Shown: piece by piece, positions 6,117 through 54,853 of the stretch
Position numbering within the stretch: position 1 is the first letter of the stretch
Layout of the letters: each line of letters begins with the position of its first letter
Source of the DNA: Thermoleophilaceae bacterium
GTDB lineage: Bacteria > Actinomycetota > Thermoleophilia > Solirubrobacterales > JACPNS01
Direction: 5' to 3'
DNA length: 64,000 nucleotides
Assembly (NCBI GenBank): GCA_016462645.1
Contig: JAEMSX010000001.1
Location: 1,999-65,998 of the forward strand
Notes under the pieces: model-generated
Told to the model about the DNA's origin: nothing
The model's database searches: none
What the model saw: the letters and a program-made list of their open reading frames with translations, nothing else
Translations under genes and position numbers: made by a program

Positions 6117-8015
<1,899 letters not shown>

Positions 8016-8065
8016 AAAGGTGCAAATTCCGGCACTTTTGACGAGCTAAGTGACTAAGGCCACAT

Positions 8066-8719: not shown

Positions 8720-8728
8720 GGGGCGACT

Positions 8729-9847
8729 GTGCCAGTGACTGATCCATACAAAGTGCTCGGCGTCGCAAAGAACGCCAGCGAGGGCGAGATCAAGAAGGCC
8801 TATCGCTCGCTCGCGCGCAAGTGGCACCCGGATCAGAACGCCGGCAACGAGCAGGCCGAGGAGAAGTTCAAGGAGGTCCAGGAGGCCTACGACATCGTCG
8901 GCGACCCGAAGAAGCGCAAGGAGTTCGACCGCGGCGGATTGAACATCCCGTTCACCGGTGGCGGCAATCCCTTCGGCGGGGCGAATCCATTCGGCGGTGG
9001 CGGCGTCAAGTTCGAGAACATCGGCGACATCTTCGGCGGCGTGAGCGGAATGTTCGGCGGCCGCGGAGGCGGGCGTCAGCGCGTGGAGCGCGGGCGCGAC
9101 CTCGAGGCCAACGTGGCGATCGGGTTCGACCAGTCGATCAACGGAACCGAAGTTTCAGTCTCGGTCCCGCGCCGCGAGACCTGCGACACCTGTCACGGCA
9201 ACGGAGCAGCTCCGGGCACCAGCCCGAAGACCTGCCCCCGCTGCCAGGGCACCGGCGTCGAGTCGGTCGGCCAGGGCATGTTCTCGATGAGTCAGCCCTG
9301 CAGCCAGTGCCACGGCAAGGGCCAGATCGTTGACTCGCCGTGCAAGACCTGCCGCGGTGAAGGCACCGTCGTCAAGACGCGCAAGTACCGCGTGAAGATT
9401 CCGGCAGGCGTCCGCGATGGCGCGCGTATTCGCGTCGCCGGCAAGGGCGAGACCGGTGAGAACGGTGGGGCCGCTGGCGATCTGTTCGTGGTTGTGAACG
9501 TCAGCGACTCCCCCGTGTTCGCGCGCAAGGGCGAGCACCTCGAAGTCAAGGTGCCCGTCACCGTGACCGAGGCGATCCGCGGCGCGACGATCGAGGTCCC
9601 GACGCTGAACGGCATCAAGCAGATCAAGGTTCCGGCCGGCACCAAGCCCGGGACGGTCATCCGCCTGAAGGGCGAAGGCCCGGCGCACTCCAAGGGCAGC
9701 GGCCACGGCGACCTGCGCTACCGCATCGAGGTCGAGATCCCCAACGCCAATGAGCTTTCCAAGGAACAACAGGACGCGGTCGATGACCTCGCGAGCGTCC
9801 TGACCAACAACCCCCGCGAAGACCTGCTCGCGCGCTCGGCGAGGTGA
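8729..9847 (+). CDS. dnaJ: molecular chaperone DnaJ (Hsp40)
   Basis: 372 aa with a GTG start. J-domain YRSLARKWHPDQN, Gly-rich linker, and four CxxCxGxG zinc motifs (CDTCHGNG, CPRCQGTG, CSQCHGKG, CKTCRGEG). Confidence 0.95.
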   Translation: MPVTDPYKVLGVAKNASEGEIKKAYRSLARKWHPDQNAGNEQAEEKFKEVQEAYDIVGDPKKRKEFDRGGLNIPFTGGGNPFGGANPFGGGGVKFENIGDIFGGVSGMFGGRGGGRQRVERGRDLEANVAIGFDQSINGTEVSVSVPRRETCDTCHGNGAAPGTSPKTCPRCQGTGVESVGQGMFSMSQPCSQCHGKGQIVDSPCKTCRGEGTVVKTRKYRVKIPAGVRDGARIRVAGKGETGENGGAAGDLFVVVNVSDSPVFARKGEHLEVKVPVTVTEAIRGATIEVPTLNGIKQIKVPAGTKPGTVIRLKGEGPAHSKGSGHGDLRYRIEVEIPNANELSKEQQDAVDDLASVLTNNPREDLLARSAR

Positions 9848-32230: not shown

Positions 32231-34123
32231 CTACTTCAGCCTGATGTCCGTCGTCACAGGCTTGCCGGCGACATCATTGGGCGACAGCGGCGTGATCGTG
32301 ACGCGGTACCTACCGGCCTTCAACTTCTTGCCGCCGAAGAAGATCTTCACGGTGCCGTTTGAGACCTTGATCGTCTGGCTGCCCTTGATCCCGATCAGCT
32401 TCCTGCCCTTGAGACGCTTGAGCGTGAACTTCGCCTGCGCCGCTCCGGTGAAGATGACGCTGAAGCTGCGCTGGCCCTTCTTGGCCACGGAGAAGCCCTT
32501 CTTGCCGCGCTTGAACGCCTTCGTCGCCTTCGCGGCGATGCGGGCGGTCGGCAACGGGAGGATCGTGACGCCGGTCGTGGCGGTCGCGGTCAGACCGGAC
32601 TCGTCTGTGACGACGGCCGTGCCGGTGTGCAGGCCCGGCGTCGCAAAGCGGTGAACGGCGGAGCTGCCGCCGCCCCGCTCGCCGTCGTCGAAACTCCAGA
32701 CGACCGTGGAGGACTCGCCGTCGGCGTCGGCGGTGACGGCGGTGAATTCAACGGGGAAGAGCGTCTCGGCGGGTTGCGGCGACGCGGCGACCGAAAGCGT
32801 CGGCGGTGTGCGCTGGTACTCGAACGCGCCAAGATCCACAACGGCGCTGCCGTTGCCGTCGCCGTCGACAACTCGCGTTCTGCCGATCATGTCAAGCTCG
32901 GAAGGGCTGATGATCTCGCCCGCAAATCCTCGGTCGATCAGCGGTGAGTCGGGCTTCAGCCGGAAGTCTCCGGCGGCGAGGTCCCTGAATCCCGGATCCG
33001 TCGCCGACAGATCCGTCTTGTTGTTCTCAGTTGTGCTGCAGCCGCTCAGATCCAGATCCGCGCCCTTGGCGGCGTAGCTGTTGACGGTCGCGGTGAGCGA
33101 GACCGAGGTTCCGCCCTGGCATATGAGCGCGTTCGATGTCTCGCCCGCGGCATACAAGACCATGTCGAAGAACCCGCCAGTGAAGCTCTGATTGCCGGCA
33201 GCGCCGGCACCGATGGCGAGCGCTGTCTGGAACGGGCCGGTCCCGACGATCGTGACCCGCGAGACGTCGGCGAAGATGTCGGAGTTGCTGATGCCGTTGT
33301 ACGCATCGAGGCCCTGTGCTGCGTTCTGCGAGCCCATCTCGATCGCGGAGTTGGTGAGCTTGAACGAGCCGGTCGTGACCTCGACGCCGCGGCCGAAGCG
33401 GGTGATCCGCATCCGGTCGAACGATTTCACCCCAGCGGTGTTCGTGTCGATCAAGATTCCGCTCGAGCCGCCGCCCGGTCCGGTCATCGTGATCTCAGAG
33501 GCAGTGCCGGCACCATCGTCGCCGGATGCTCCGGAGGAATTCAGGTGAATGCCGACGCCGCTGCCTGAGGTCAGCGAAATCGATCCGCGCTTGGCGCTGG
33601 CCCCGGAGTCAAGTGCCAACGCGTGGAACCCGGACGCGAGCCCGCCGGGCTGCGCGACAGCGAAGTCGGTGAGTCCACCTTTGAAGACCTGAACGCCGGT
33701 GCCGCTACTGGGCGTGCCGGTGAAGTTCACCGTGAAACCGCTTGCGTCGCTGCCTGTCGTGGTGAAGTTGAGGGTGAGCAACGCGGCGCTTGCGACTGAG
33801 CCGATGAAAGTCGTCAGGCCGGCACCAGCGCCGACGATGTGGACGTCCTGCAGCGCAGCAAAAGTCGGATTCAATGGGGTTGCAAGGTTGTATGTACCGG
33901 CCGCCAGGAAGATCGTGTCCTCGCCGGACAGTGCGTTGGCAGCCGCGACGGCGTTGGTGATTCCCGTGGCGTCCGCGCTGAAGTTCGGCTCCGGGCTGCC
34001 GAGGCACGTCGGCACCGATCCGACGCAGAAGTTCGCCGCGGACGCCGCCGAGGGCAGAATCGCGAACGCGGCGAGGGTCAGGGCCAGAAGCAGTAGTCGA
34101 CGGCGCATCTTCTCAGCCAGCAT
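32231..34123 (-). CDS. secreted right-handed beta-helix protein with PKD-like domain and Lys-rich C-terminal domain
   Basis: 630 aa. Signal peptide ..LLLLALTLAAFAILPSAASA. Gly/Ser/Thr-rich beta-helix region ending ..DPGFRDLAAGDFRLKPDSPLIDRG..VVDGDGNGSAVVDLGAFEYQ. PKD-like ..VEFTAVTADADGESSTVVWSFDDG..HRFATPGLHTGTAVVTDESG... A 109-aa basic tail follows. Confidence 0.75.
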   Translation of the reverse strand: MLAEKMRRRLLLLALTLAAFAILPSAASAANFCVGSVPTCLGSPEPNFSADATGITNAVAAANALSGEDTIFLAAGTYNLATPLNPTFAALQDVHIVGAGAGLTTFIGSVASAALLTLNFTTTGSDASGFTVNFTGTPSSGTGVQVFKGGLTDFAVAQPGGLASGFHALALDSGASAKRGSISLTSGSGVGIHLNSSGASGDDGAGTASEITMTGPGGGSSGILIDTNTAGVKSFDRMRITRFGRGVEVTTGSFKLTNSAIEMGSQNAAQGLDAYNGISNSDIFADVSRVTIVGTGPFQTALAIGAGAAGNQSFTGGFFDMVLYAAGETSNALICQGGTSVSLTATVNSYAAKGADLDLSGCSTTENNKTDLSATDPGFRDLAAGDFRLKPDSPLIDRGFAGEIISPSELDMIGRTRVVDGDGNGSAVVDLGAFEYQRTPPTLSVAASPQPAETLFPVEFTAVTADADGESSTVVWSFDDGERGGGSSAVHRFATPGLHTGTAVVTDESGLTATATTGVTILPLPTARIAAKATKAFKRGKKGFSVAKKGQRSFSVIFTGAAQAKFTLKRLKGRKLIGIKGSQTIKVSNGTVKIFFGGKKLKAGRYRVTITPLSPNDVAGKPVTTDIRLK

Positions 34124-34214: not shown

Positions 34215-36098
34215 TCAGCGCTTGAGCTTGAGGGTCAGCGTCACCGGGGTGCCCGAAACGCCTGTGGAATCCAGGGGCGCGATCGTCACCTTGTAGGTGC
34301 CGGGCTTGAGCTGCTTCTTGTTCCAGAAACCTGCGAACGTGAACTTGTTGGTCCCGCTCTTCACCTTCAGGGTCTGCGAGCCGCGCTGTTTTGCGATCTT
34401 GAAACGCGCTCCCACGGCGTCGGCGAAGGTCACGGAGAAGGTCGGCGATCCCTTGGTCACGACGGCAAATCCCTTCTTGCCGGCCTTGAATGCCTTCTTC
34501 GGCTTGGCCGCGATGCGTGCGGTCGGGGCCACCCGAGGAAACGGATTGACAGTGACGACGGCCACGGCAGTCGACTTCGCTTCGGCTTGATCGATCGCCG
34601 TGAGCGTTGCCGTGTGCTGACCCACTGCGGCGAACGCGTGACTCACCGAGCTCACGTTCCCGGCGCTCGCACCGTCGTCGAAACTCCACGCGAGAGTGAC
34701 CTCTTCGCCCTCGGCGTCGCTCACTGCGGCGTTGAAAGCAATCGGCGCGCCGGGCAGAACAGATGTCGCCGACGCAGAGATCGAAACCTGCGGCGCGGCG
34801 CGCTGGTACTCGAAGGCACCAAGGTCGGTCTTGACGGTTCCGTCGCCATCGCCGTCAACTGCGCGCCTGCCGCCCGCCAAGTCCTGGTCGGAGTCGGCGA
34901 GCGTGCCTGCCGTTGAACCCTTGTCGATCAGTGGTGAAGTGCGCACGAGCCGGTAGTCGCCGGCCGCTGCGTTGCGGAACCCGGGATCGACGAACAGCAG
35001 CTCGGTGAATTTGCCCGTCTCGAAGCTGAAACCACAACCGGTGTCGACCTGCCAACTGCCGATCGCCGCGAAGAAGCCGAGGTCCATGAAGGCGGTGTTC
35101 ACGCTGCTGGACGCGCCGCGACAGTCGAATGCGCTGTAGGTCGAGACCCCCGAATCAGACACCCAGGTGACGACGTCGGAGACTCTGGCGTTGAGACCCG
35201 AAGGCAGATCGGCCGAATAGAGGCTCAGGCCGGTCTGGTCCGTCCCGCTGCCGACGATCGTCACCCGCTCCACGTTCAAGTCGATCGTCTTGCCGTCGTA
35301 CGCCTCCGCGGCGACACCGAAACCGCTGGCTGCGGCGCCCAGATCGATCAGCGAGTCGGTCAGCGTGACCTTCTTCTCCCCGACACTCAGACCAGTGGTG
35401 AACCCCTTGATCTTCACGTGGTGAAAGTTGAGTTCAGTGTCGGGCTCGCTGCTGTTCACATAGATTCCGGTGCCGGTGTTGCTCGGCGTGGACGTCCTGA
35501 CATCGAGGTTGTATGCGGTCCCGGATTTGTAGTCGGCGTGGATGCCGATTCCGCCGTAGGTCGCGAGATCGATCGTGCCGTCGTGGGCCGTTCCGCCCCA
35601 CCCGATTTCGAGGCCGCTGAAGCCGGCTGAATTGCTGGGAGAGTCCTCGAACTTCTCGACCGCGAAGTCGCTGACGTTGGAGCGCATGACTGACAGTCCC
35701 GATCCGTTCGCGGAAGGCGCATCCACGCGGACCGTGAAGCCGCCCGCCCTGGACCCCGGCTCACCGACGATCGACAACACGTCCTGGCCGGGATACGCAC
35801 CTTGGAAGATCGTCTGCCCGACGCCCGCACCGACGATCGTGGTATCGGAAGCCGGAACGAGGGTCAGCGGTTCAATCAGATCGAATACGTGGGGAGCGAC
35901 CACAACGCTGTCGGCGCCGGGATTCGCGTCGGCGGCATCTTCCGCGCTGATGATCCCAGCGGTGCTCAGGCCGTAGGTTGCAACCGGGCAGCGCGGGAGA
36001 CTCACTCCGACGCAGAAGTCTCCTGCCATCGCGCCCGGCGCGGTCAGGCCAAGTGCGGTTGCAGCGACCAACCCGACGAGCAGCGAGCGAAGCTTCAT
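34215..36098 (-). CDS. secreted right-handed beta-helix / PKD protein, tandem paralogue
   Basis: 627 aa with the same architecture. Signal ..LVAATALGLTAPGAMA, ..DPGFRNAAAGDYRLVRTSPLIDKG..AVDGDGDGTVKTDLGAFEYQ, PKD-like ..IAFNAAVSDAEGEEVTLAWSFDDG..HAFAAVGQHTATLTAIDQAE.., and a 110-aa basic tail collinear with the neighbour. Confidence 0.75.
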   Translation of the reverse strand: MKLRSLLVGLVAATALGLTAPGAMAGDFCVGVSLPRCPVATYGLSTAGIISAEDAADANPGADSVVVAPHVFDLIEPLTLVPASDTTIVGAGVGQTIFQGAYPGQDVLSIVGEPGSRAGGFTVRVDAPSANGSGLSVMRSNVSDFAVEKFEDSPSNSAGFSGLEIGWGGTAHDGTIDLATYGGIGIHADYKSGTAYNLDVRTSTPSNTGTGIYVNSSEPDTELNFHHVKIKGFTTGLSVGEKKVTLTDSLIDLGAAASGFGVAAEAYDGKTIDLNVERVTIVGSGTDQTGLSLYSADLPSGLNARVSDVVTWVSDSGVSTYSAFDCRGASSSVNTAFMDLGFFAAIGSWQVDTGCGFSFETGKFTELLFVDPGFRNAAAGDYRLVRTSPLIDKGSTAGTLADSDQDLAGGRRAVDGDGDGTVKTDLGAFEYQRAAPQVSISASATSVLPGAPIAFNAAVSDAEGEEVTLAWSFDDGASAGNVSSVSHAFAAVGQHTATLTAIDQAEAKSTAVAVVTVNPFPRVAPTARIAAKPKKAFKAGKKGFAVVTKGSPTFSVTFADAVGARFKIAKQRGSQTLKVKSGTNKFTFAGFWNKKQLKPGTYKVTIAPLDSTGVSGTPVTLTLKLKR

Positions 36099-44017: not shown

Positions 44018-46942
44018 CTACTTGACGGTCACCGTTGTCGCCTTGGCGCCGAGCGTGTCACCTGTGCCTGTGATCGTCACGGTCGCCTTGACCTTCTTCT
44101 TCTTGGCCAGCAACTTGGCTGAGCTTGCCGGCGGAGTGATCTTCACCGCGACGAGCTTTCCGGGCTTGACCGTCACCGACTTGGCGAAGGTCTTGCCGCC
44201 GACCTTGACTGCGACCTTTCCTGTGCAGGTCTCCTTCTCTGCGGCACACCCGATCAGAACCTTGAACGGGTGCTTCTTGCCACTCGACTTCACGCTCGAC
44301 ACGAGCACCGTCAACGTCTTCGTCGACTTCGGCGTCGTGATCGTCGGGACTGGAGTGACCGGCGTCGGCAGGACCGGCAGCGTCGTCTCTACGGCCGGCG
44401 GGATCGCATCCGAGTCGTACGTGAGCGACGGCGTCGTGCTCAGCGGTTCGACCTGGCCGTTGGCCTGCTTCTCGAAGGCGTAGGCGAAGCCCATCAGTTC
44501 TGCGTCCGAGAACTCCGGTCCTTCGAGCTGGAGGTTGATCGGCTGACCGTGGTCGTTCACCCCGGCGGGGAAGATCACGGTCGGCACGCCGGACGCCGAC
44601 GACTGCGGGTCCAGGCGGCCGAAGCTCGGCTGGATCGAGTCGTTGAGGTGGATGTCGCTCAGCTGACCCGGGAACACCGTTGCGTCAACGCCGTTGTCAT
44701 CCATCCACTGCTTGAGCAGCGCGCGATAGTTGGCCCGGTAGGCCTCGCGACCCACGATCTGCTCGTCCGTTGCCGCGCCCGTGCCGGCGTAGGGCGTGGT
44801 GTTGCGGAACTGCGGGATACGCAGCGGGTTGCGAATGATCTGCGTCACATCCGAGTACGGATTGTTCGGGTGCGCGAGCATCCACTTCCACCAGCCGGTG
44901 TAGCCCATGTCTCCGAATGCGTTGCCTCCGCTGGGAGCGGACGGCGGCGCGGGGATGTCCACGACGGTCGCACCGGCGGCTTCGAAGTGATCCATCGCAG
45001 CCATCATCGCGTCCTTGGTCCCAGTGGTCCCGAACGGGTCGTTGAACGCACCGGCCGGGATCCCGATCGTCTTGCCTACGAGCGCGTCGTCCTTGAGGGT
45101 GGCCGACCAATCCGTCGGGCGGTGTCCGTTGGAGACATCGTCACGGGGATCCTCGGGGTTGTCGGCGGTCGTCGCATCCAGCATCAGCGCCAGGTCCGGG
45201 AGCGTCTTTGCGATCACTCCCGCGTAGTCCTGGATGAACGTCAGCGGCATCACGCCGTCAGCGCTCTGCATTCCGTCGGTTCCGCGCAGCGACACGAGGC
45301 TCGCGGCGCTCGACGGACCCCAGAGGGAATCGCCGGTCTGCGAGCCGAGTGACGCCGCAGCGAAACTCGATGCGACGGCCACGGCCGATCCGCCGCTTGA
45401 CCCGATCGAACTGCGTGACGGGTCGAACGCGTTCCAGACCTGGCCGTAGGCGCTCGGGCTGAAGTGACCGTCGGTCGCGTACTCAGCCAGGTTCGCCTTG
45501 CCGAGGATGATTGCGCCCGCTTCACGCAGCTTCGCGACGATCCACGAGTCCTTGGTCGGCCGGTAGCCGTCGAACACGAGTGATCCGCCGGTCGTCGGCA
45601 TGTCCTTCGTGTCGTAGAGGTCCTTCGCCAGAATCGGAATTCCGAGCAACGGTCGCTTGTCACCAGCGGCGCGCGCGGCGTCGGCCGCCTTGGCCTGCTC
45701 CATCGCGTCCGGGGCGACGGCGAGCACTGAGTGCAGACCGAGCGGGCCCTGGTCGTAGACCGCAATCCGGTCGAGGTAGGCGCGGACGATCTGCCGCACA
45801 TTCGTCTTGCCCTCGGCAAGGTCGGCTTTCAGGTCCGTGATCGACTTCCCGACCACGTCATACGGCGATGTCGTGACCGGCGTCGGCGCGGCGACCGAAC
45901 CGAGCACCGGCGCCGAGAGCGGCTCGCCCTGGGTCAGCGGACAGTTCGCGGAGCTGAACCCCGGGATCGTGAGCGCCGACAGGTTGTAGTTGACAATCGA
46001 GCAGATCTCGCCCGTGGTCAGACCGGAGAAGTCGGGCGTGGTCGCCAGCGCAGCAGCCATCGTCTCGACCGCGGTCGTCTGGGTGTCGATACCCGGAGCG
46101 GCGCCGCCACTCGGAGTCGTGCGCGTTTCAGAAAGTCCGGTGACGACGAAGTGCGTGACCGAACGCGTCTGCTTCGGCGGGATGATCAGGCGCGTCACGA
46201 GTCCGACGTGGTTGGACTCATCGCCAGTCGTCGGCAGCGCGTTCGAGAACGGATCCCGCACGAACGGACCAGTCTTCGTCAAAGCGCTGGCGTAGCCCGC
46301 GGTTCCGACCGTCGTCGCCGATGGACCGTTCGCGCTCGCCGTGCCGGGACCGGCCGACGGCGTGTACGACGAGAACCAACCGTCAGCGCTCGTGATCGTG
46401 GTGTCACCGCTGGACGTGCTCTTGATCGCGCTCTGGTTGGTGCCGGTGTTGTAGCCGAGCTGACCACCGAACGCGACGTCAACCGTGACGGTCGCCTTTG
46501 TCGTGTTCGTGAACGAATCGAAGAACCGCGCCCAGTTGTCGGTCTTGTTGATCAACAGCTGCCTGCTGGCGGCAACTCCGTCGATCTTCACGGCGTTCTG
46601 GCTGAGGAACTGGTTGACGCCGTCGAACTTCAGGCCGAAGCCGCGCAGCAGGATCCCGCTGAGGCGATCACTCCCGCCGGCAACTTCCATGCGGATTCCG
46701 CCGTAGCCCTGGAGTGAGCCTGTGGCTGTGTTGTGGATACTTCCGGTGTCCAGACCCGGAATCGCCGCATCATTCACGGCCCAGTAGTCGCTGTTGGTGT
46801 TGGTGACCTGGTTCCAGGCGCCGGCCGTGGAGGCCAGCATGGTGAGGGCGAAGATCGTCAGGGCGAGAACCTGAATCGTGCGCACGAAACGGCGCAGTTT
46901 CAGGGGTCGCCGAGACGACCCTCGAGGTACGAGAGCGTTCAT
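44018..46942 (-). CDS. large secreted amidase-signature (AS) family amidase with unknown N-terminal domain and Lys-rich C-terminal domain
   Basis: 974 aa. Signal/anchor ..IQVLALTIFALTMLASTAGA. AS core ..LGIPILAKD..TTGGS.. and ..SSIGSSGGSAVAVASSFAAASLGSQTGDS... The ~340 aa preceding the AS domain have no motif I recognise. The last 106 aa are a Lys-rich beta-strand-like tail. Confidence 0.8.
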   Translation of the reverse strand: MNALVPRGSSRRPLKLRRFVRTIQVLALTIFALTMLASTAGAWNQVTNTNSDYWAVNDAAIPGLDTGSIHNTATGSLQGYGGIRMEVAGGSDRLSGILLRGFGLKFDGVNQFLSQNAVKIDGVAASRQLLINKTDNWARFFDSFTNTTKATVTVDVAFGGQLGYNTGTNQSAIKSTSSGDTTITSADGWFSSYTPSAGPGTASANGPSATTVGTAGYASALTKTGPFVRDPFSNALPTTGDESNHVGLVTRLIIPPKQTRSVTHFVVTGLSETRTTPSGGAAPGIDTQTTAVETMAAALATTPDFSGLTTGEICSIVNYNLSALTIPGFSSANCPLTQGEPLSAPVLGSVAAPTPVTTSPYDVVGKSITDLKADLAEGKTNVRQIVRAYLDRIAVYDQGPLGLHSVLAVAPDAMEQAKAADAARAAGDKRPLLGIPILAKDLYDTKDMPTTGGSLVFDGYRPTKDSWIVAKLREAGAIILGKANLAEYATDGHFSPSAYGQVWNAFDPSRSSIGSSGGSAVAVASSFAAASLGSQTGDSLWGPSSAASLVSLRGTDGMQSADGVMPLTFIQDYAGVIAKTLPDLALMLDATTADNPEDPRDDVSNGHRPTDWSATLKDDALVGKTIGIPAGAFNDPFGTTGTKDAMMAAMDHFEAAGATVVDIPAPPSAPSGGNAFGDMGYTGWWKWMLAHPNNPYSDVTQIIRNPLRIPQFRNTTPYAGTGAATDEQIVGREAYRANYRALLKQWMDDNGVDATVFPGQLSDIHLNDSIQPSFGRLDPQSSASGVPTVIFPAGVNDHGQPINLQLEGPEFSDAELMGFAYAFEKQANGQVEPLSTTPSLTYDSDAIPPAVETTLPVLPTPVTPVPTITTPKSTKTLTVLVSSVKSSGKKHPFKVLIGCAAEKETCTGKVAVKVGGKTFAKSVTVKPGKLVAVKITPPASSAKLLAKKKKVKATVTITGTGDTLGAKATTVTVK

Positions 46943-47167: not shown

Positions 47168-48451
47168 CTAGGGAACGTCGAACTCCTGGCTCGGATCGGT
47201 ACTCGGTTTCGGTTGAGCCGGTGCCCTGGTCGGAGTCTGCTGCTGCACCTGCGGCGCTGCCTGTGGGACCTGCTGAACCTGCGGGGTGGTCACCGGAACG
47301 GCCGCGTTCGTCGATGCTGATCGCCTTGCTGCTGCAGCGCGTGCGCGTGCGCGGGCTCGAGCTCTCGCGCGGGCTCGCGAGCGAGCCCTTGCGTCACGCC
47401 TGCGCTCCGCCCTGCGCTCGCGGGCAGCACGCGCCTTGCGCCTGGCCTTCGCAGCTGCCGCCTTCTCCTCCGCGCGATCGGCCGCCGAAGTGTCGGCTGT
47501 CTGCGCGGACTTCACGCTGGCATCGTCACCGCCGCCGAACATGCTCAAGGTCGTGACGCCAGCGAGCGCGATCGCCACCACCGCGGCGGCAGTAACGGCG
47601 ATACGCGTGAAGCGTCCGGAAGAACTCGTGCTCGCTCTGCGCGCGGGCCGGCCGCGCAGCGGACTCGGAGCGCGGCGCGCGGCGTTCGGCGGACTCGCAA
47701 TGCCGAGGCTGACGCTGCCCGTGAGCGCGCGCAGGATCGGCGCGCTGGGATTGGTGATCGCGGTCAGCCCACGCGCCTCGATCGCGTGTCGCTGGCAGCC
47801 GACGCACTCGTCCACGTGGCGCGAGGCCGCACGGTATTCGTCTGAGCGCGGGTCGAGGATGCCGAGCGCATACTGGTTCACCAGCGGAAGCAGTTCATCG
47901 CACGGCTCGCCCTCGTCGAATCCCTCGAGCACCGGCTCCAGCGCGGCAAGCACGTCATCCAACGCCTCAACGATCCGGAACCCCCCGACGCCCGCGACCT
48001 CGGCGGCCTCGAAGGCCTTGAAGCCATAGACGCGGCAGAGCGTTATCGCCTGGAGCTCGCGTTGGTTGAGCGTGGTGCGCATCCGTGTGGAGAACTCGCG
48101 TTGGAGCACCTGTTGTTCCGGCGTCGCCTCGATCGGGTCGGCGATGCCGACGGCCTCAAGCACCTCCAGCTCCATGCGCGACGCCGGGTGGAGCACGCGG
48201 TGCTCGTCGATGGCCTGTCGGCAAGTTGAGTCAGTCAGCAGCTGTTCGAGATTGTCGATCTCGCCCTTGGCCCAGAGCCGCGAGAAGACCCCGTGCCACG
48301 CGCGGTTGTAGAACGTGTCCACGTCGCGCGCCGCGAAGTCGATCCCGTCGCTCGCGAGCTGGTTGTATGCGACGCGCGAGACCTCGCTGCGGTGCCTCGC
48401 GTATTCGTCGCCGACGATCACGAAGTCGTGCTGTTCGGTCGCCCCGCTCAC
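47168..48451 (-). CDS. single-chain ECF sigma factor / zf-HC2 anti-sigma membrane protein (copy B)
   Basis: GTG start at 48451 overlaps the upstream gene's TGA (GTGA), 427 aa. Region-2-like ..FYNRAWHGVFSRL..LLTDSTCRQAIDEHR... Region-4-like ..LNQRELQAITLCRVYGFKAFEAAEVAGV... Then ..ASRHVDECVGCQRH.. (H-x3-C-x2-C), hydrophobic segment IAVTAAAVVAIALAGVTTLSMF, an Arg/Ala polybasic block and a Pro/Gln tail. Confidence 0.65.
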   Translation of the reverse strand: MSGATEQHDFVIVGDEYARHRSEVSRVAYNQLASDGIDFAARDVDTFYNRAWHGVFSRLWAKGEIDNLEQLLTDSTCRQAIDEHRVLHPASRMELEVLEAVGIADPIEATPEQQVLQREFSTRMRTTLNQRELQAITLCRVYGFKAFEAAEVAGVGGFRIVEALDDVLAALEPVLEGFDEGEPCDELLPLVNQYALGILDPRSDEYRAASRHVDECVGCQRHAIEARGLTAITNPSAPILRALTGSVSLGIASPPNAARRAPSPLRGRPARRASTSSSGRFTRIAVTAAAVVAIALAGVTTLSMFGGGDDASVKSAQTADTSAADRAEEKAAAAKARRKARAARERRAERRRDARARSRARARARARARARAAAARRSASTNAAVPVTTPQVQQVPQAAPQVQQQTPTRAPAQPKPSTDPSQEFDVP

Positions 48452-50049
48452 GGCATCACCAGCGCCTGCACGACGGGGCTTGCCTTGCTCGGCCACGGCC
48501 AACCCTGCTTGGCGCGGACGATCGCGCGAAAGCTGAACAGTGTCGGGCGCGTGACGCGCGTGAAGCGGTGCTGCCACTTGTAGGCCCCGCTCCTGCCCGC
48601 GGTGACAACCTCGATGGCGCTCCAGCGCTTGCCGTTCCTGACCTCGATCTCGACCGGAGCGCCGCCCGCTGCCGAAGCAGCTCCTGCGAGGCGACCAGCG
48701 ATCGTCAAGCTGGCGCCGCGACGCAGCACGCGCTGGGATCCACGGGCGCTGAGCGTGAGCGCCTGACGCAGGGTTGTGGATGCCGAGGCGGTGCTCTGCG
48801 CGCCGTCGGCCGGCCGGAAGACGAACGTGATGCGCAGCGCACCGCTCGGCTTGACCTTGAAACTGAACTTGCCGTCGGCCTTCGTCCTCGTCGTTCCGAT
48901 CGGGATCAACGTTGACGGACCGAAGAGGTTTGACTTGTAGACCTCCAGCGTGGCGCCGCCGATCGCGCCGCCGGCGCTGGTGCGCAAGACGCCGCGCACG
49001 GCCACCTTCTTCGCCGACTTGGCGGCGATCAGCTTCTTGCTCGTGGAGAGCGCGGGTACCTCGACTGCCGGGGTGCCATTCGCGCCGACGCCACCGATCG
49101 TGAAGTTGATCGGCGCGAGCGCGCCGACGTTGCCGGCAGCGTCGGTCGCGTACACGACGACGGTGTGCCTGCCGGAGCCGTAGTCGCCGAGGTTGAACTC
49201 ATAGTTCTTGCTGACGGCCGAGGGGCACGGGACGGTCTTTGTATACGGGGTGCTGCACGAACCGCCCGAGTCGGACGCTGACTTCACCACCCCGTCGACG
49301 CTCAGCGCGACGGTGCGAACTCCGCCGCCGACATCACTCGCGGCAACGGCGAGCGAGAACTTTCCGGCCAACGCGACGGCACCGGGGAGCGTTCCCCCGG
49401 TGAGGGCGACGACCGGCGCGTTCAGATCCCTTAGTTCGACCTGCGAGTTGTAGAGCCGTGCCCACAGCGAAGGGGTGGCGCCGGACGGGCAGCCGCTCGG
49501 CTCAACGCACTCGACGCCGAGCTGGAGACTGCTCGCGTTGATGCCACTGGACTGGGTCCCGTTGGCGGCAATCGCGCAGTCGACCTTCTTGGCTTCGCAT
49601 TCGCCCCAGTAGGTGTTGGCAGAAGCGACTGTGCGCCTCAGCCCGGCACTGATCGCCGGGTGCGAGCCGCTGGTTGCGAACGTAACGGCCGCAGAGCGCT
49701 TGATGTCGTAGTTGAGAATCGTGGTTCCGGCCGGTGCATCAAAGCGCACGCCCGCGTTCTCACCGGAGACCATTGCCAGTCCCACGGAAGCGACCACCGA
49801 GAACCCATTGCACGCGGTGCCGAGACTGAAGAGGTTCGCGTGCCCGGGCACCGAGGCCTGCGTGACCCAGGCGTCGTTGCCCACCACTTCGTCGTTCGGG
49901 CCGAGGCAGCTGTAGACGCTGTAGGTCCCGGCGGAAGCAGACGCCGCCGCCATCGCGAACACCGTGCAGGCAGCGGCGAGCACGGCAAAGCACGCGGACA
50001 CGCGTCGCCAACGCACGGCTATTTGCCGAGATACAACCACCGAGTTCAC
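48448..50049 (-). CDS. secreted 8-Cys / Ig-like-domain surface protein (P1)
   Basis: 533 aa. GTG at 50049; GTG at 50040 has better AGGGAG spacing. Signal ..RWRRVSACFAVLAAACTVFAMAAASASA then GTYSVYSCLGP... Eight Cys in the mature N-terminal half. Ig-like ..GGGVRTVALSVDGV..HTVVVYATDAAGN... Carboxypeptidase-regulatory-like ..GATLEVYKS..ADGKFSFKVKP... C-terminus ..RFTRVTRPTLFSFRAIVRAKQGWPWP... Confidence 0.7.
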   Translation of the reverse strand: MNSVVVSRQIAVRWRRVSACFAVLAAACTVFAMAAASASAGTYSVYSCLGPNDEVVGNDAWVTQASVPGHANLFSLGTACNGFSVVASVGLAMVSGENAGVRFDAPAGTTILNYDIKRSAAVTFATSGSHPAISAGLRRTVASANTYWGECEAKKVDCAIAANGTQSSGINASSLQLGVECVEPSGCPSGATPSLWARLYNSQVELRDLNAPVVALTGGTLPGAVALAGKFSLAVAASDVGGGVRTVALSVDGVVKSASDSGGSCSTPYTKTVPCPSAVSKNYEFNLGDYGSGRHTVVVYATDAAGNVGALAPINFTIGGVGANGTPAVEVPALSTSKKLIAAKSAKKVAVRGVLRTSAGGAIGGATLEVYKSNLFGPSTLIPIGTTRTKADGKFSFKVKPSGALRITFVFRPADGAQSTASASTTLRQALTLSARGSQRVLRRGASLTIAGRLAGAASAAGGAPVEIEVRNGKRWSAIEVVTAGRSGAYKWQHRFTRVTRPTLFSFRAIVRAKQGWPWPSKASPVVQALVMP

Positions 50050-50130
50050 TCCCTGAACGCGCGGACGTGGCCGAGTGCCGAGTACCGCGTACAGGGAAGT
50101 TAACCGACCGGGGAGCCTTTGGCAAGCTGA

Positions 50131-51348
50131 CTACTGCAAATCGAACTCAGCGCCGCTGTCGTCCGACGGATCGTTCGGCGTGTACTTCGGCGCGGCGGGC
50201 GCGGGCGCCACCGGCTGCGCGGCCTGCGGCTGCGTCTGTTGCGGGACCGGCTGGCTGGCTTCAGGCTTCGCCGCCGCGGCCCTCTTTCTGGCTGCTGACC
50301 GGCGGGCGGCGGCGCGTTTCTTGGCCGCCTTCTCCTTTGCGGCGGCCTTCGCCGCGACCGCATCCGCTGCACCGCTGCTCGCACCCTGACTCACGGGCGC
50401 AGAGCTTCCTGCGTCGTCTCCTGCGGAAATCTTGTTGGCGGCCACAAAACCGCCTGCCGCGACCACAGTCACCGCGGCAATCACAGCCGCAGCCTGCGCC
50501 GCCCCGCCGATTCCGGCACCACCCGCAGCAGCGCCTCCGGCCGAAGAACCTCCGGCTGCCGAGCTACCCGTTGCGGCGGCCGCGCCTGCGGCACCGACGC
50601 CGGCGGCAGCACTCGTCAGCGCGAAGAGCAGGAGCGCGCTCGGGATCGTCACAGCGGTCAGTCCGCGTGTGCCCATCACATGGCGGCGGCAGCCCGGGCA
50701 ACCTTCAAGATGAGCGACGGCCTCGCGGTAGTCGTCGCTTTCCGGCTCGAGCGCGCCGAGCGCAAACTGGTTGATCAGCACCGCGCGGTCCTCGCACCAG
50801 GTGCCTTCCTTGATCGAAGCCAGCACCGGTCGCAGCTTGCGGGAGACCTCGTCCATGATCTTCTCCATGCGTTTCGGGCGCACACCGATCTGTTCGGCGG
50901 CCTCCGGACGCGAGAAGCCGTAGACGTAACAGAGCGTCGCCGCCCGCAGCTCGCGCTGGCTCAGCTCGGAGCGCATGCCCTCGACGAACTGCTTGAACTC
51001 GCGTTGCTGGTCGAGCGTCTCCTCAATCGGGTCGTCAGTGCCGAGCGTCTCAAGCACCACCGGGTCGGCGTGGCGATCGGGATGCAGCGTGCGGTACTCG
51101 TCGATCGCGCGGCGGTAGGTCATCTGCACGAGCAGGCCCTTGCGGTTCTCGATCTGCTGCCCGTCCTGAAGCTTGGTGTAGAGGCCGTACCAGGCCTGGT
51201 TGTAGAAGCCGTCCATGTCCAGCTCGGCGAAGCGGATCTTCGACGCCGCGAGCTTGCCGGCGACCGTACGCGTGACCTCGTCCTTGAAGGCTTCGTACTC
51301 CTCGCCGATCACCTGGTCGGCGTTGATGACTGAAGCGGGGCTACTCAT
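50131..51348 (-). CDS. single-chain ECF sigma factor / zf-HC2 anti-sigma membrane protein (copy A)
   Basis: Trimmed to the ATG at 51348, 405 aa. ..FYNQAWYGLYTKL..LLVQMTYRRAIDEYR.., ..LSQRELRAATLCYVYGFSRPEAAEQIGVRPKRMEKIMDEVSRKL.., ..AVAHLEGCPGCRRH... Gly/Ala-rich hydrophobic segments, a Lys/Arg/Ala block, then a Pro/Gln tail ending ..DPSDDSGAEFDLQ. Confidence 0.65.
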   Translation of the reverse strand: MSSPASVINADQVIGEEYEAFKDEVTRTVAGKLAASKIRFAELDMDGFYNQAWYGLYTKLQDGQQIENRKGLLVQMTYRRAIDEYRTLHPDRHADPVVLETLGTDDPIEETLDQQREFKQFVEGMRSELSQRELRAATLCYVYGFSRPEAAEQIGVRPKRMEKIMDEVSRKLRPVLASIKEGTWCEDRAVLINQFALGALEPESDDYREAVAHLEGCPGCRRHVMGTRGLTAVTIPSALLLFALTSAAAGVGAAGAAAATGSSAAGGSSAGGAAAGGAGIGGAAQAAAVIAAVTVVAAGGFVAANKISAGDDAGSSAPVSQGASSGAADAVAAKAAAKEKAAKKRAAARRSAARKRAAAAKPEASQPVPQQTQPQAAQPVAPAPAAPKYTPNDPSDDSGAEFDLQ

Positions 51349-51904
51349 CCTGAAAACTGTCGGCAACCATGAACAACGCCACGCTTGCGCCCAGCGCGTT
51401 GGCAACATGCCCAGGGACGCCCATGCGATCGGCCGGCGCGCAGGCCAGCGCCGCGAAAATGCTCGAAGCGATCCGGCGCGCGAGCGTGACGGTCTCGCCG
51501 CCGGCGCGCAGGCCGTTGAACATCAGGTCGCGATCATCGCTCATCACAAGTGCCGTCTCATCGAGTGCTCCGGCGATCCAGACGTCCGGGTCGTAGCCGG
51601 TGTCGCGCGCGTGGATCTCCAGCGCGCGGGCGGTCAGTCGCGCGACGCCCGCAGATGCACTGCGAAGCATCGCGGCGTGCTCGTCCGCTGTCGGGGCGGC
51701 TTCAAAGATCTGGGCGATCATCGCGAGATCGACCGCGGCGTCACCCGCAAGGCAGAGCAGGTCCTGCGTCGAGCACGCGGTTTCGATGTCATACGACGTC
51801 CCGGTGAAGTTGCCGCCGATCGCTATCGCCGTGCCGTGGGCGCGAGCGATCGACTCGCGACCGCGCCGCCCGAGTTCCACCAGTGCGCGCTCGAACGGAG
51901 TCAT
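51341..51904 (-). CDS. hypothetical cytoplasmic Ala-rich protein, present in only one copy of the module
   Basis: 187 aa from the ATG at 51904, which overlaps the upstream TGA (ATGA). Its TAG at 51341-51343 overlaps the next gene's start by 8 nt. High GC3, no TM or signal, no recognisable motif. Confidence 0.5.
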   Translation of the reverse strand: MTPFERALVELGRRGRESIARAHGTAIAIGGNFTGTSYDIETACSTQDLLCLAGDAAVDLAMIAQIFEAAPTADEHAAMLRSASAGVARLTARALEIHARDTGYDPDVWIAGALDETALVMSDDRDLMFNGLRAGGETVTLARRIASSIFAALACAPADRMGVPGHVANALGASVALFMVADSFQDE

Positions 51905-53535
51905 CGCGCCACCAACACAGTCACCGACTGCGCCGTCTCGGTGGGCCAGGGCCAGGACTTGTTCCTGCGCACGATCGCGCGGAAGGTGAACCGCGTGGGC
52001 TGCTTCACGCGGGTGAACCGATACTTCCACTTGTAGCTGCCGCGCGAGTTCGCCTCGACCACGCCGACCGCACGCCAGGACTTGCCGATTCGCGCGTCGA
52101 TCTCGACCGGGGTGCCGTCGGCCGCCGCGCCCGCGCCGTCGAGCGCGCCCCTGAGTGTGAGTGCGCCACCGGGCCTGACGCGCGACTTCGAACGCTTGAC
52201 CGAAAGCCGCAGATCCTCTCGCACGATCGATGACGTGACGGCCGTCCCGATCGAGGACGGGTACGGCTTGAACAGCACGCTGATGCGCTGCGCGCCATGC
52301 GGCTTGACTCTGACCGAGAAGCGTCCGGTGGAAGTTGTGGTGATCGTTCCGATCGACCTGGTTGCAGCGTCGAACACACCAAGATCGAGCGAGGTGACCT
52401 CAAGCGCCGCCCCGGCAACCGGAGCACCGGCTGGAGTGGTGAGCGTTCCTTCCACCACGACGGTCCTGCCGTTGACCGAGGAAATCACCGACTTCTCGGT
52501 TCTCACGGTCGGCTGCTCGACGGCCGGCGAGCCGTTGCTCGGTGGAGTTCCGCCGCCGCCAGCGCCCCCGCCCGAAAGGCCACCCGAGGTGACGCTGAAG
52601 GTGAAGGTGTGGGGCGAGCTGAGATTTCCGGCCGCGTCCGTGGCCGTGAGCGTCGCGGTGTGCACGCCGTTGGTCAGCGCCGCCGTGTTGACGCTGAGCT
52701 TGCCCAGAAGACCCGAGGGGCACGGCGCGCGCAGCGTGTAAGGCTGACCGCAGCTGCCGCCGGCGACGCTTGTCTGGCTGAAGACTCCGTCGATCGCAAG
52801 GTCGATCATGCGCACGCCGCCACCGACATCGGTCACAGTCGCATCGATCGACTGAACAGCGGCGGCGCTCGCAGAGCCCGGCAACGAGCCTGCGACCGAA
52901 GCGATCACAGGGGCGGTCGGATCTTCGAGATCCACTCGCGCATTCATCAGTCGCGTGGAGAGCTGGGTGAACGAGCCGGTTCCGCAACCGGTGTCATCAG
53001 AGCAGCGAACGCCGACGCTCAGCTTCGAGACAGCCAGGCCGCTGCGCGAGAACGCGTCGGTGAGTGAGCCACAAGGGGTGGTCACGTTGACGCAGTCGAA
53101 GCCGGTTGTTGTGGCACCGCTGGTCTCGCTCACCCCGGCCGAGACGACGCTCGGCGGCGGAGTCGCGACCGGGAAGGCGATCGCGACCGCGCGGTTGAGC
53201 GAGTAGCCACTGATGGTCGTTCCGGCCGGCGCGTCAAAGACGTACTCCGCGCCGTCGCCGAGCACGTACGCGCGGGTCGTTGAAGCGGCGACGCTGAGAT
53301 CGCCGCAATTCGTGCCGAAGGCGAAGTCGAGCGTCTGATTGGGGTCGTTGACCGATGTGAGCCAGGAGGAGTTGGGCAGCGCTTCCGCGCTCGGGCCGAG
53401 GCAGGAGTACACGCTGTAGGTCGCGGCATTGGCCGGGCCGACCGCCGCGAAGGCAATCGCGCACAGCGTCAGACCGGCAACGATGACTGTTCGCGCCGCG
53501 AGGAGCCTGCTTTTCGATCGAACCGTGATCTGCAT
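51901..53535 (-). CDS. secreted 8-Cys / Ig-like-domain surface protein (P2, paralogue of P1)
   Basis: Trimmed to the ATG at 53535 (MQITVRSKSRLLAARTVIVAGLTLCAIAFAAVGPANA then ATYSVYSCLGP..), 544 aa. Collinear with P1, including ..FDAPAGTTI.., ..GGGVRMIDLAIDGV..HTATLTATDAAGN.., ..GAALEVTS..STGRFSVRVKP.. and ..RFTRVKQPTRFTFRAIVRRNKSWPWP... Confidence 0.7.
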   Translation of the reverse strand: MQITVRSKSRLLAARTVIVAGLTLCAIAFAAVGPANAATYSVYSCLGPSAEALPNSSWLTSVNDPNQTLDFAFGTNCGDLSVAASTTRAYVLGDGAEYVFDAPAGTTISGYSLNRAVAIAFPVATPPPSVVSAGVSETSGATTTGFDCVNVTTPCGSLTDAFSRSGLAVSKLSVGVRCSDDTGCGTGSFTQLSTRLMNARVDLEDPTAPVIASVAGSLPGSASAAAVQSIDATVTDVGGGVRMIDLAIDGVFSQTSVAGGSCGQPYTLRAPCPSGLLGKLSVNTAALTNGVHTATLTATDAAGNLSSPHTFTFSVTSGGLSGGGAGGGGTPPSNGSPAVEQPTVRTEKSVISSVNGRTVVVEGTLTTPAGAPVAGAALEVTSLDLGVFDAATRSIGTITTTSTGRFSVRVKPHGAQRISVLFKPYPSSIGTAVTSSIVREDLRLSVKRSKSRVRPGGALTLRGALDGAGAAADGTPVEIDARIGKSWRAVGVVEANSRGSYKWKYRFTRVKQPTRFTFRAIVRRNKSWPWPTETAQSVTVLVAR

Positions 53536-53951
53536 CTTCTGACTCTCAAACACCCGCGAGCGGGAATCGGTGTGCCCAAAGAAAACTAACTGCCAGCCGC
53601 CACCGGAGACTGCACCCGCGAAATCGCGACAATACCGCGAGTGAAGTAGATCCCGGTGGGCGACTGGCAGCCGCGTCCACGTGATGAAGCTGCGCGTGCG
53701 CAAAGGCCCGAAGGGTCCCGACCATCCATGATCAAGCGCTCGCGCGTGGAACGTTGGCCGTCGCGGTGTCTGCCTGAGACCGCGTGTCCCGTCAACGCCG
53801 AAAGCTGCGCCGGAGCCCCCCGGCGCATGTATGACGTGTTCCACCTCACCACGTCACGCATGGAACGTCCAACTGACACCGGGGGGAAAATCGAGGCGTC
53901 AGCCTCCACATGCGTGGCTGCGTGTCCGGAGCTCCGCTCCAGAGAGTTGCT

Positions 53952-54028: not shown

Positions 54029-54853
54029 CTAGCTGCGGCGTGAACGGCGACCGGAAGACTTCTTGTCTTTCGGTTCTTTGGGCTGGCGCTCGGCCTTCTT
54101 GTGGCCGTTTAGCCTGAGGTCTTCCTTGGCGATGCGCTGGAGGATCTTGCCGAAAGCCTCTTCGGCGGCCGTGTCCATGTTCACGCGGAATGAGGCCATC
54201 ACGGTCTCGGTGGCCAGCGGGCGAAGTCCCTCGATCGCTTCAACGACCTTGGGGAAGCTCTCGGGCGGCAGACCGGCCTTCTCCTGCGGACGAACGACGC
54301 CAGTGTCGACCATCTTCGTGAAGACTTCTGCGATCGCTCGTGTGTGTTCGTTGACCTTTTTGAACACGTCAAAGAGCGTGTCGACGGGCACCCCCAGTTC
54401 GAGCGCGCTGATGCCTGCGCGCAGGAGCGTCGGGCTGAGCACCTCATAGCGATCGTCGCCCAGCGGAATGACGAAACCGAGGTCGATCCCCTGCTTGATC
54501 ATCCGCGAGTCGATCTCGCCGACCTGCTCGGCCAGCTCCTTCAGCGTCATCACCTCGGAGGGCTCTTCCGCGAACGGCGTGAGCACGAGATTGCGCAGGT
54601 CGCCGATGTTGTCGCCGGTCTCTTCGGCACGCTCGACCAGGCGCTGGATCGCGGTGAGGTTGAAGCCGCCGGCCTGCAACTGCTGGATCAGCTCCAGCCG
54701 GGCGATGTGGCGATCGCCGTAGTAGCCGATACGTCCTTTTACGTCGGGCGCGGGGAGCAAACCGCGAGACTGATGGGCGCGGATGTTGCGCACCGTCATT
54801 CCGGTCTGCTGCGCGAGTTCGTCGATCGTGAGTTGGTCTTTGCTTTCAGCCAT
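54029..54853 (-). CDS. MerR-family transcriptional regulator with long C-terminal domain
   Basis: 274 aa. HTH ..LTIDELAQQTGMTVRNIRAHQSRGLLPAP..GYYGDRHIARLELIQQLQ... A ~190-aa C-terminal region of unknown function ends in a Lys/Arg-rich tail. Confidence 0.8.
   Translation of the reverse strand: MAESKDQLTIDELAQQTGMTVRNIRAHQSRGLLPAPDVKGRIGYYGDRHIARLELIQQLQAGGFNLTAIQRLVERAEETGDNIGDLRNLVLTPFAEEPSEVMTLKELAEQVGEIDSRMIKQGIDLGFVIPLGDDRYEVLSPTLLRAGISALELGVPVDTLFDVFKKVNEHTRAIAEVFTKMVDTGVVRPQEKAGLPPESFPKVVEAIEGLRPLATETVMASFRVNMDTAAEEAFGKILQRIAKEDLRLNGHKKAERQPKEPKDKKSSGRRSRRS

Follow-up and report, generated by a model that had tools for sequence, protein, structure and literature searches.

How might a sigma factor that carries its own anti-sigma domain in a membrane polypeptide be tied to a protein that the same cell exports? 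The question is raised by a locus in the 64,000-nucleotide (nt) stretch of Thermoleophilaceae bacterium DNA analyzed here (contig JAEMSX010000001.1, positions 1,999 to 65,998; hereafter, the window), which codes for two secreted proteins with immunoglobulin (Ig)-like domains, P2 and P1, and, downstream of them, two membrane proteins, fusions A and B, respectively. The fusions are each a divergent extracytoplasmic function (ECF)-like sigma factor (σ2 + σ4) joined to its own ZAS-type anti-sigma domain in one membrane polypeptide, and comparisons across related genomes point to a tight evolutionary association with P. Drawing on analogy with characterized systems, we lean slightly toward a sigma factor that would be released by proteolysis and whose tail would work with P outside the cell. 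The module is made up of the following genes:

51901..53535, minus strand: P2, secreted protein of 544 residues (from the table of open reading frames)
51341..51904, minus strand: O187, 187 residues, a facultative third gene of the module
50131..51348, minus strand: fusion A, 405 residues, ATG start
48448..50049, minus strand: P1, 533 residues, paralog of P2 with an identical domain order
47168..48451, minus strand: fusion B, 427 residues, GTG start, faster-evolving paralog of fusion A

This order was first proposed in a reading of the DNA alone (the original prediction), and all of its coordinates, overlaps, and the one gap were reproduced from the table of open reading frames (ORFs) and the sequence. 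Read along the minus strand, the P2 stop and the O187 start share an ATGA overlap, the 3′ end of O187 runs 8 nt into fusion A, over its ATG, fusion A and P1 are separated by 81 nt (50130-50050), and the P1 stop and the fusion B start share a GTGA overlap. An alternative GTG at 50040, which lies 8 nt past AGGGAG, may be the actual start of P1. Each of the five ORFs has the G+C bias at third codon positions that marks real genes in this genome of 65% G+C. The paralogy perceived earlier is borne out by P2 and P1 being 41% identical over 543 residues, i.e., their whole length (E=4e-119), and by A and B being 44% identical over their first 268 residues (E=3e-71), similarities that by sequence comparison lie far beyond chance; a search of the window for further copies of P or the fusion returned none. 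The tandem duplication in the original prediction therefore stands, but its description as that of a two-gene unit does not, because the P2 copy has a conserved third gene, O187, which had been treated as incidental. The duplication is old and is common to three other genomes (L001, L002, L004).

A divergent sigma factor and its anti-sigma domain in one chain

The elements recognized in the fusions, in order along the chain, are:

fusion A, residues 10-88: σ2-like region (AlphaFold helices)
fusion A, residues 108-181: σ4-like region (AlphaFold helices)
fusion A, residues 184-248 (50605..50799, minus strand): ZAS anti-sigma domain with C185 and H213-x3-C217-x2-C220, pLDDT >90
fusion A, residues 286-304 (50437..50493, minus strand): transmembrane helix, Kyte-Doolittle peak 2.26
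fusion B, residues 284-302 (minus strand): transmembrane helix, from hydrophobicity
fusion A, 50134..50148 (minus strand): C-terminal peptide EFDLQ, an instance of a conserved E[FY]-x-[LF] end

The joining of sigma and anti-sigma functions in one membrane polypeptide had been proposed in the original prediction, and it holds on grounds other than the hmmscan profiles with which that prediction meant to check it: these gave sub-threshold sigma and zf-HC2 matches for fusion A and none for fusion B. For fusion A, TIGR02937 reaches 32.7 bits against a cut-off of 42.9 (E=5e-8, residues 36-173), Sigma70_ECF a sub-threshold 17 bits, Sigma70_r4_2 14.4 bits against 25.7, and zf-HC2 (PF13490) 14.3 bits against a gathering cut-off of 22.2, with no match to Pfam Sigma70_r2; fusion B alone matched no family in Pfam or NCBIfam. 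Because these matches stay below threshold, the sigma assignment rests on a phmmer bridge to recognizable sigma factors, on AlphaFold models and Foldseek searches, and on the zinc-ligand motif.

With E-values from 4.6e-254 to 8.8e-33, 98 close members were recovered by the phmmer search from fusion A. Every one of them comes from Solirubrobacterales, Conexibacter, or Patulibacter, and many are named sigma-70 or sigma-24 by the Prokaryotic Genome Annotation Pipeline (PGAP) or IMG. The search extends further to longer Solirubrobacterales proteins with Pfam Sigma70_r2 and r4_2 matches (P0099-P0118, E=2e-11 to 9e-4), one of which also carries a zf-HC2 domain. The AlphaFold model of fusion A, which was fed by an alignment (A4) that included distant canonical ECFs, has predicted local distance difference test (pLDDT) values >90 for residues 10-240 and consecutive helices at 10-88, 108-181, and 184-248. 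Its top Foldseek matches in the PDB are all sigma factors, viz., Mycobacterium tuberculosis SigE, SigL, and SigH, CnrH, SigK, RpoE, and the sigma chains of the SigL σ4-RslA complex (3hug), with the ECF sigma matches spanning 170-190 columns at probability 1.00. The model displays the two-domain organization that defines ECF sigma factors, i.e., σ2 and σ4 with neither σ3 nor σ1. In the family alignment, the ECF-like motifs DxDxxYNQAW (region 2.2-like) and LLVxxTYRRAIDExR are nearly invariant; R160 of the helix-turn-helix (HTH) is invariant and its M-E-K-I-M-D is conserved among closer relatives.

The helices at 184-248 are confidently predicted and contiguous with σ4, and profile A4 matches the anti-sigma factor RslA (3hug_B, E=0.0088). 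C185, H213, C217, and C220 are invariant in 17 family sequences, and in an alignment of 70 sequences the latter three remain invariant while C185 is at least 90% conserved. By their identity and usual spacing, C185 and H213-x3-C217-x2-C220 can be recognized as the zinc ligands that mark a ZAS domain. Fusion B retains this motif (H..C..C).

A different interpretation of the N-terminal region is that it is a degenerate, non-transcriptional mimic, like the sigma-like domain of PhyR, in a protein that acts as a membrane scaffold. Searched one by one against Pfam, the 17 family members matched Sigma70_r4_2 in 10 cases, Sigma70_ECF in five, zf-HC2 (weakly) in four, PhyR_sigma-like in two, and Sigma70_r2 in none, such that the σ2 part passes no curated model, and copy B has lost all family matches and shows changes in part of its putative recognition helix. 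These features would suit a mimic; however, the near-invariance of the typical ECF motifs, the invariant HTH arginine, and the 80-84% identity of the A-type N-terminal domain between genomes speak for a functional sigma factor, as does the PGAP name, sigma-70 family sigma factor. We accordingly hold the mimic to be very improbable.

The secreted partner

The P2 product (minus strand) is organized as follows:

residues 1-37: signal peptide with an AXA site
residues 38-205: Cys-rich N-terminal domain, seen in the AlphaFold model, without a Pfam match
residues 210-315: Ig/Big_13-like domain (weak Pfam match, AlphaFold)
between the Ig/Big_13-like and CarboxypepD_reg-like domains: Gly-rich linker
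residues 343-440: CarboxypepD_reg-like domain (weak Pfam match, AlphaFold)
residues 443-542: C-terminal Ig-like domain (AlphaFold) with a conserved W-P-W-P

AlphaFold models P2 as four β-sandwich domains with a mean pLDDT of 88. Eight cysteines (C45, C77, C148, C155, C178, C184, C262, and C272 in P2 numbering) are invariant or nearly so in 45 homologs, P1 and P2 both have a signal peptide with an AXA site, and all 39 P genes examined code for a signal peptide and, after it, a mature N-terminus of the conserved form x-Y-x-V-[YW]-[SA]-C. The earlier description of a secreted, eight-cysteine, Ig-like protein is thus upheld by the cysteines, the signal peptides, and the Ig-like domains. As to an anchor, no sortase signal, lipobox, or transmembrane segment was found in P. 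Pfam searches with the 45 homologs at E≤1 gave nothing for the N-terminal domain, Foldseek searches of the PDB and BFVD for the identity of the fold returned only generic Ig/MG/FN3 chains with TM-scores <0.25 and were set aside, and we found no kinship in sequence or fold with the extracytoplasmic partners FoxA and RseB. Libraries of defense systems and phages showed no relation.

A profile search of 1.84 billion representatives delineated a P family of about 1700 clusters at 50% identity (E≤1e-30), mostly of 520-600 residues; in some members, additional Ig domains separate the head from the C-terminal pair. The best 150 of these clusters were inspected for fusions. Two candidates were rejected: a 906-residue protein that looks like the product of a miscalled start and a 696-residue one that is two tandem P genes read as one.

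Conservation of the pairing

We scanned for the fusion with its alignment, using one genome per species, and sought P by tblastn in the 47 loci recovered, all from Thermoleophilia. With one truncated locus (L041) left out, P lies directly upstream on the same strand in 43 of the 46 informative loci, from Conexibacter, Patulibacter, Solirubrobacter, and Thermoleophilaceae; the loci without P are L035, L043, and L044. In 17 pairs the stop codon of P overlaps the start of the fusion (xTGA), in four more the two are 0-2 nt apart, and where O187 intervenes it is the O187 start that the P stop overlaps. Both the co-occurrence of the two genes as adjacent pairs in relatives and the translational coupling of the fusion to a large exported protein encoded ahead of it, as the original prediction had them, are supported by these figures. 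None of the other neighbors is conserved around the module; the only one recurring beyond close relatives is a MerR-type gene, found in 11 loci within about 5 kb at varying positions.

The P1-type proteins form a clade. Between the window and L001, L002, and L004, the A-type sigma domains show the 80-84% identity given above, against 48-56% for their P2 partners; the B-type fusions evolve fast (26-41% identity). P diverges faster than its fusion partner, as expected for an exposed sensor/receptor or surface protein under diversifying pressure, and the A-type N-terminal domain is under strong constraint.

A first metagenome scan with the P alignment gave nothing, and a second one gave 13 distant loci. 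Among the distant P relatives from metagenomes (25-30% identity), a sigma-ZAS-transmembrane fusion follows P in L048, L059, and L061. In L048 (520-2541 and 2799-4156) the distant P is followed by a fusion whose outside part looks like a PD40/TolB-type β-propeller repeat, inside which the contig ends; the association of P with a fusion is therefore older than the type of tail. Overall, the pairing is near-obligatory in the window's subfamily, and recurrent without being universal in the wider P family.

The transmembrane helix, the outside tail, and the C-terminal peptide

Each fusion has a single strong hydrophobic segment. In fusion B it is preceded by about eight arginines (a charge of ~+8) and followed by acidic residues, a distribution that indicates an orientation with the N-terminus inside and the C-terminus outside. 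The extracytoplasmic tail of fusion A comprises residues 305-405, i.e., about 100 residues of low complexity without a domain match and, save for one helix, with pLDDT <50, and is predicted to be disordered. In order, the tails have a predicted helix rich in Ala, Lys, and Arg (328-358 in A), a Pro/Gln-rich stretch whose length would suffice to reach into the wall, and, as their near-invariant end, [DG]-x-x-x-E-F-[DEG]-[LF]-x, in which E401 and F402 are invariant in the family alignment. The tail of fusion B is Arg/Ala-rich, then Pro/Gln-rich, and finishes with EFDVP. The original prediction made no mention of this C-terminal EF-x-L peptide. Of 4280 ORFs of at least 80 residues in the 47 related loci and the window, 38 end in E[FY]x[LFIVM]x0-2, and all of these are fusions save two.

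The two are small, single-pass, Pro-rich membrane proteins encoded just after the fusion(s) in L043 (11799-12482) and L044 (9380-9949), with an EF-x-F-E end. A further side observation concerns L035 from Patulibacter minatonensis (6904-7665, 7233-9287), where a fusion-family gene has neither P nor EF-x-L, its tail is Gly/Ala/His/Ser-rich, and a canonical stand-alone ECF sigma gene lies just upstream; it is the only fusion without P that is also without the motif.

The conserved features outside the cell bear on the possibility that the ZAS domain is itself the sensor, with oxidation or thiol stress releasing the zinc and a conformational change freeing the sigma part, as in RsrA and RshA, and with the tail and P playing no role. 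The complete and invariant set of ZAS zinc ligands would be in keeping with this, and redox-sensing ZAS proteins are well known (PMC8999054). Without cleavage, however, the sigma domain would remain fixed at the membrane, and the conserved transmembrane helix, tail end, and pairing with P imply an extracytoplasmic function. Moreover, many membrane ZAS anti-sigma factors, e.g., RslA and RsdA, are controlled by proteolysis. We regard sensing by the ZAS domain as improbable.

The third gene

O187 has neither a signal peptide nor a transmembrane helix, and searches of Pfam, NCBIfam, and (by profile) the PDB gave no match. All of its 53 homologs are labeled "hypothetical." Of 48 loci, 17 were found to contain it by a hidden Markov model of the family, and in each of these it adjoins the pair on the same strand, in one of three gene orders. 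In Thermoleophilaceae, Conexibacter, and Patulibacter it separates P from the fusion, in L012, L016, and L017 it follows the fusion, and in L037 it precedes P. O187 is thus, far from being incidental, a real, facultative third gene, whose product is predicted to be a cytoplasmic accessory protein.

Comparison with known single-chain systems

The original prediction could not map the module to any described system. That claim does not survive in this form, as ECF48, ECF52/SCO4117, ECF53, and IutY already combine the two functions in a single chain (PMC8999054; PMC5826349; PMC5411451). In the parts of the two surveys that define the actinobacterial groups, an ECF sigma factor is C-terminally fused to a ZAS domain and one to two transmembrane helices in ECF48, ECF52/SCO4117, and ECF53 (PMC8999054; PMC5826349), and, as far as these accounts and that of IutY extend, activation by proteolysis of the fused anti-sigma part has been predicted or shown (PMC8999054; PMC5411451). 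ECF52 (SCO4117 of Streptomyces coelicolor), ECF48, and ECF53 resemble our fusions in that one polypeptide holds the ECF sigma factor, ZAS domain, transmembrane segment, and a long Pro-rich extension; they are described there from Actinobacteria only, with proteolytic activation predicted (PMC5826349; PMC8999054). The fusions display the full set of parts by which the corresponding section of PMC5826349 defines ECF52, namely a sigma factor, a zinc finger, a transmembrane segment, and a Pro-rich extension, and their architecture is compatible with the ZAS domain and one to two transmembrane helices given for ECF48 and ECF53 in the pertinent part of PMC8999054, a comparison of architecture rather than of phylogenetic placement.

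Several differences set the present family apart. The ECF52 extension ends in a carbohydrate-binding module, whereas the tails of the fusions lack a globular domain and end in EF-x-L; the sigma domain is far more divergent than that of ECF48/52/53, falling below the Pfam and TIGRFAM cut-offs; and the fusions have a coupled upstream gene for a secreted multi-Ig protein and often O187, whereas the sections on ECF48/52/53 in the two surveys mention no such partner (PMC5826349; PMC8999054). IutY of Pseudomonas putida (ECF243; receptor IutA) likewise unites sigma and anti-sigma factors in one membrane protein. Its activation needs an extracytoplasmic partner and frees the sigma factor by Prc and then RseP (PMC5411451), steps for which a role of P and a release of the fusion's sigma domain would be the counterparts. 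IutY, however, has a FecR-type periplasmic domain and an outer-membrane TonB-dependent transducer, in contrast to the ZAS domain, disordered tail, and soluble secreted Ig-domain partner, encoded upstream, of our module, in which Pfam and NCBIfam gave no FecR or TonB-receptor match. The host is most likely monoderm.

The logic we propose for P also has parallels among two-protein systems. RseB shields the anti-sigma factor RseA from site-1 proteolysis, and P could act alike. In FoxA/FoxR, the extracytoplasmic partner guards the anti-sigma factor's C-terminal domain from proteolysis (PMC11637429), so that an outside protein blocks degradation until a signal arrives; such a protective role is what P is presumed to have. 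The single-chain design is hence already known; what is new is the conserved, coupled secreted partner, the facultative O187, the conserved C-terminal peptide, and the divergent sigma core. A full-text literature search combining Thermoleophilia, ECF, and anti-sigma found no paper.

Fused ECF/anti-sigma factors are known mostly from sequence surveys, with only SCO4117 and IutY having been studied. On the signal and cleavage of those in Actinobacteria, the module offers an unusually clean handle: a separate, co-translated partner on the sensor side, a five-residue conserved tail end, and cultured hosts (Conexibacter, Patulibacter).

A proposed mechanism and its alternatives

In the reading toward which we lean, the cytoplasmic N-terminal σ2-σ4 region would be kept inactive by the ZAS domain of the same chain, with the transmembrane helix tethering it to the membrane and the disordered tail lying outside the cell. 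P, predicted to be made from the same mRNA just ahead of the fusion and to be exported without an anchor of its own, would associate with the tail and supply what the fusion lacks, a ligand-binding or "cap" part, replacing the globular sensor domain found on the Pro-rich extension of ECF52. Before a signal arrives, it may protect the tail in the way that the FoxA signaling domain protects FoxR. Loss, occupation, or damage of P would then expose the tail to a site-1 protease, and an intramembrane cleavage would follow, freeing the sigma domain, which would most probably transcribe its own operon. The contact between P and the tail, the proteolytic release, and the autoregulation are conjectures by analogy with the above systems.

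Were P to bind the tail, this would show how, with no two-component system, a monoderm bacterium links transcription to a surface protein, and would give a function to a large "hypothetical" secreted family of soil Thermoleophilia; were it not to, the fusions would still be a well-delimited new ECF subgroup missed by curated models.

Several observations weigh against the proposal. With regard to the sigma factor itself, neither A nor B alone passes the curated sigma or zf-HC2 cut-offs; profile A4 does match CnrH (4.8e-14), with an alignment that includes distant canonical ECFs; and a profile of the 17-sequence core matches only WhiG σ4 (E=0.002). Because of this last result and the lack of Sigma70_r2 matches among the individual members, the σ2 part is truly divergent, in a family that the curated models miss. 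As for the partnership, no "Rosetta-stone" protein with P fused to sigma/anti-sigma domains occurs among the best 150 of the about 1700 clusters, the wider P family has other neighbors (polysaccharide deacetylase, S8 peptidase) in six of about nine informative loci, and the P-less clade of L043 and L044 retains EF-x-F, twice per tail. Because these P-less tails and the separate small membrane protein carry it, the motif behaves like an independent short linear signal for which an adjacent P is not needed. As for release and autoregulation, no protease gene is linked to the module, and no shared ECF-type promoter was found upstream of 33-39 P genes by k-mer enrichment, CGGTA-anchored inspection, or bipartite 4-mer/spacer/4-mer enumeration against shuffles. 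That search brought up only blocks restricted to the P2 orthologs, and a scan with consensus promoters and terminators stayed at chance level; autoregulation is thus unsupported, because no shared promoter motif was found.

Some of these points fit another explanation, namely that P is no more than the main output, a structural or adhesive surface or secreted protein heading an autoregulated operon, which makes no contact with the tail, the sensing being left to the tail or something else. P-family proteins occur without a nearby fusion (L050, L052, L054-L056, L063), the tail motif persists in the L043/L044 fusions that lack an adjacent P, the fusion paired with P in L048 has a PD40-like outside domain of its own, and distant P homologs insert extra Ig domains, like the stalks of adhesins. 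On the other hand, a stop/start overlap kept across a deep clade, with P ahead of the regulator, would be unusual for a mere target gene; a P without an anchor would be lost from a monoderm cell; and only P and the fusion stay together as all other neighbors change. We consider this explanation unlikely, if a serious contender.

The notion of a released sigma factor working with P can be taken further, to a split, wall-spanning surface sensor, a version that we find rather doubtful and offer tentatively. Here, EF-x-L would dock in the C-terminal β-sandwich domains of P, whose fast-evolving Cys-rich head would be carried by an Ig stalk; once P is removed or occupied, the tail would be uncapped and the release of the sigma factor would start, with O187 as a cytoplasmic modulator. 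If true, such a split sensor would be a Gram-positive counterpart of cell-surface signaling and a type so far undescribed in monoderms.

A conserved hairpin in the P2 leader

The leader of the P2 operon contains a further conserved element:

53590..53671, minus strand: conserved 82-nt hairpin (RNAalifold) between the MerR-like gene and P2

The invariant GCGGTATTGTCGCGAT lies within it, and a U-rich run, UUAGUUUUCUUU, comes after it. In the aligned leaders 88.7% of the cells are paired, as against 25-46% in slid controls, double changes occur in 13 pairs, and G-U pairs are numerous on the sense strand only. A covariance model scores 82-104 bits on the sense strand and at most 20 bits on the antisense strand, with matches only upstream of P2 orthologs (the window, L001-L004, L006, and L027); Rfam gave no match for the region. 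The hairpin is a candidate clade-specific cis-regulatory RNA, which could function as an attenuator or a protein-binding leader. About 200 nt past the stop of the MerR-like gene lies a GC-rich palindrome, GCGCCGGGGGGCTCCGGCGC (53807-53826, minus strand), conserved in five of the six aligned P2 orthologs, the L006 segment not reaching that far. It may be the terminator of the MerR-like gene, though no T-run follows it.

Neighboring genes

The gene directly upstream of the P2 leader (54029-54853, minus strand) codes for a MerR-family regulator of 274 residues whose C-terminal domain is long and whose end is rich in Lys, Arg, and Ser. On the other side, 225 nt downstream of fusion B, a secreted protein of 974 residues (44018-46942, minus strand) combines an N-terminal region of about 380 residues without assignment, an amidase domain (PF01425, E=2e-63), and a C-terminal β-like region rich in Lys; the syntenic relatives lack it, and their purine genes stand directly next. 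Farther away, a tandem pair of genes on the minus strand (32231-34123 and 34215-36098) codes for proteins of 630 and 627 residues that share the position of their single PKD domain, and this pair probably reflects a further tandem duplication of a gene for a secreted protein.

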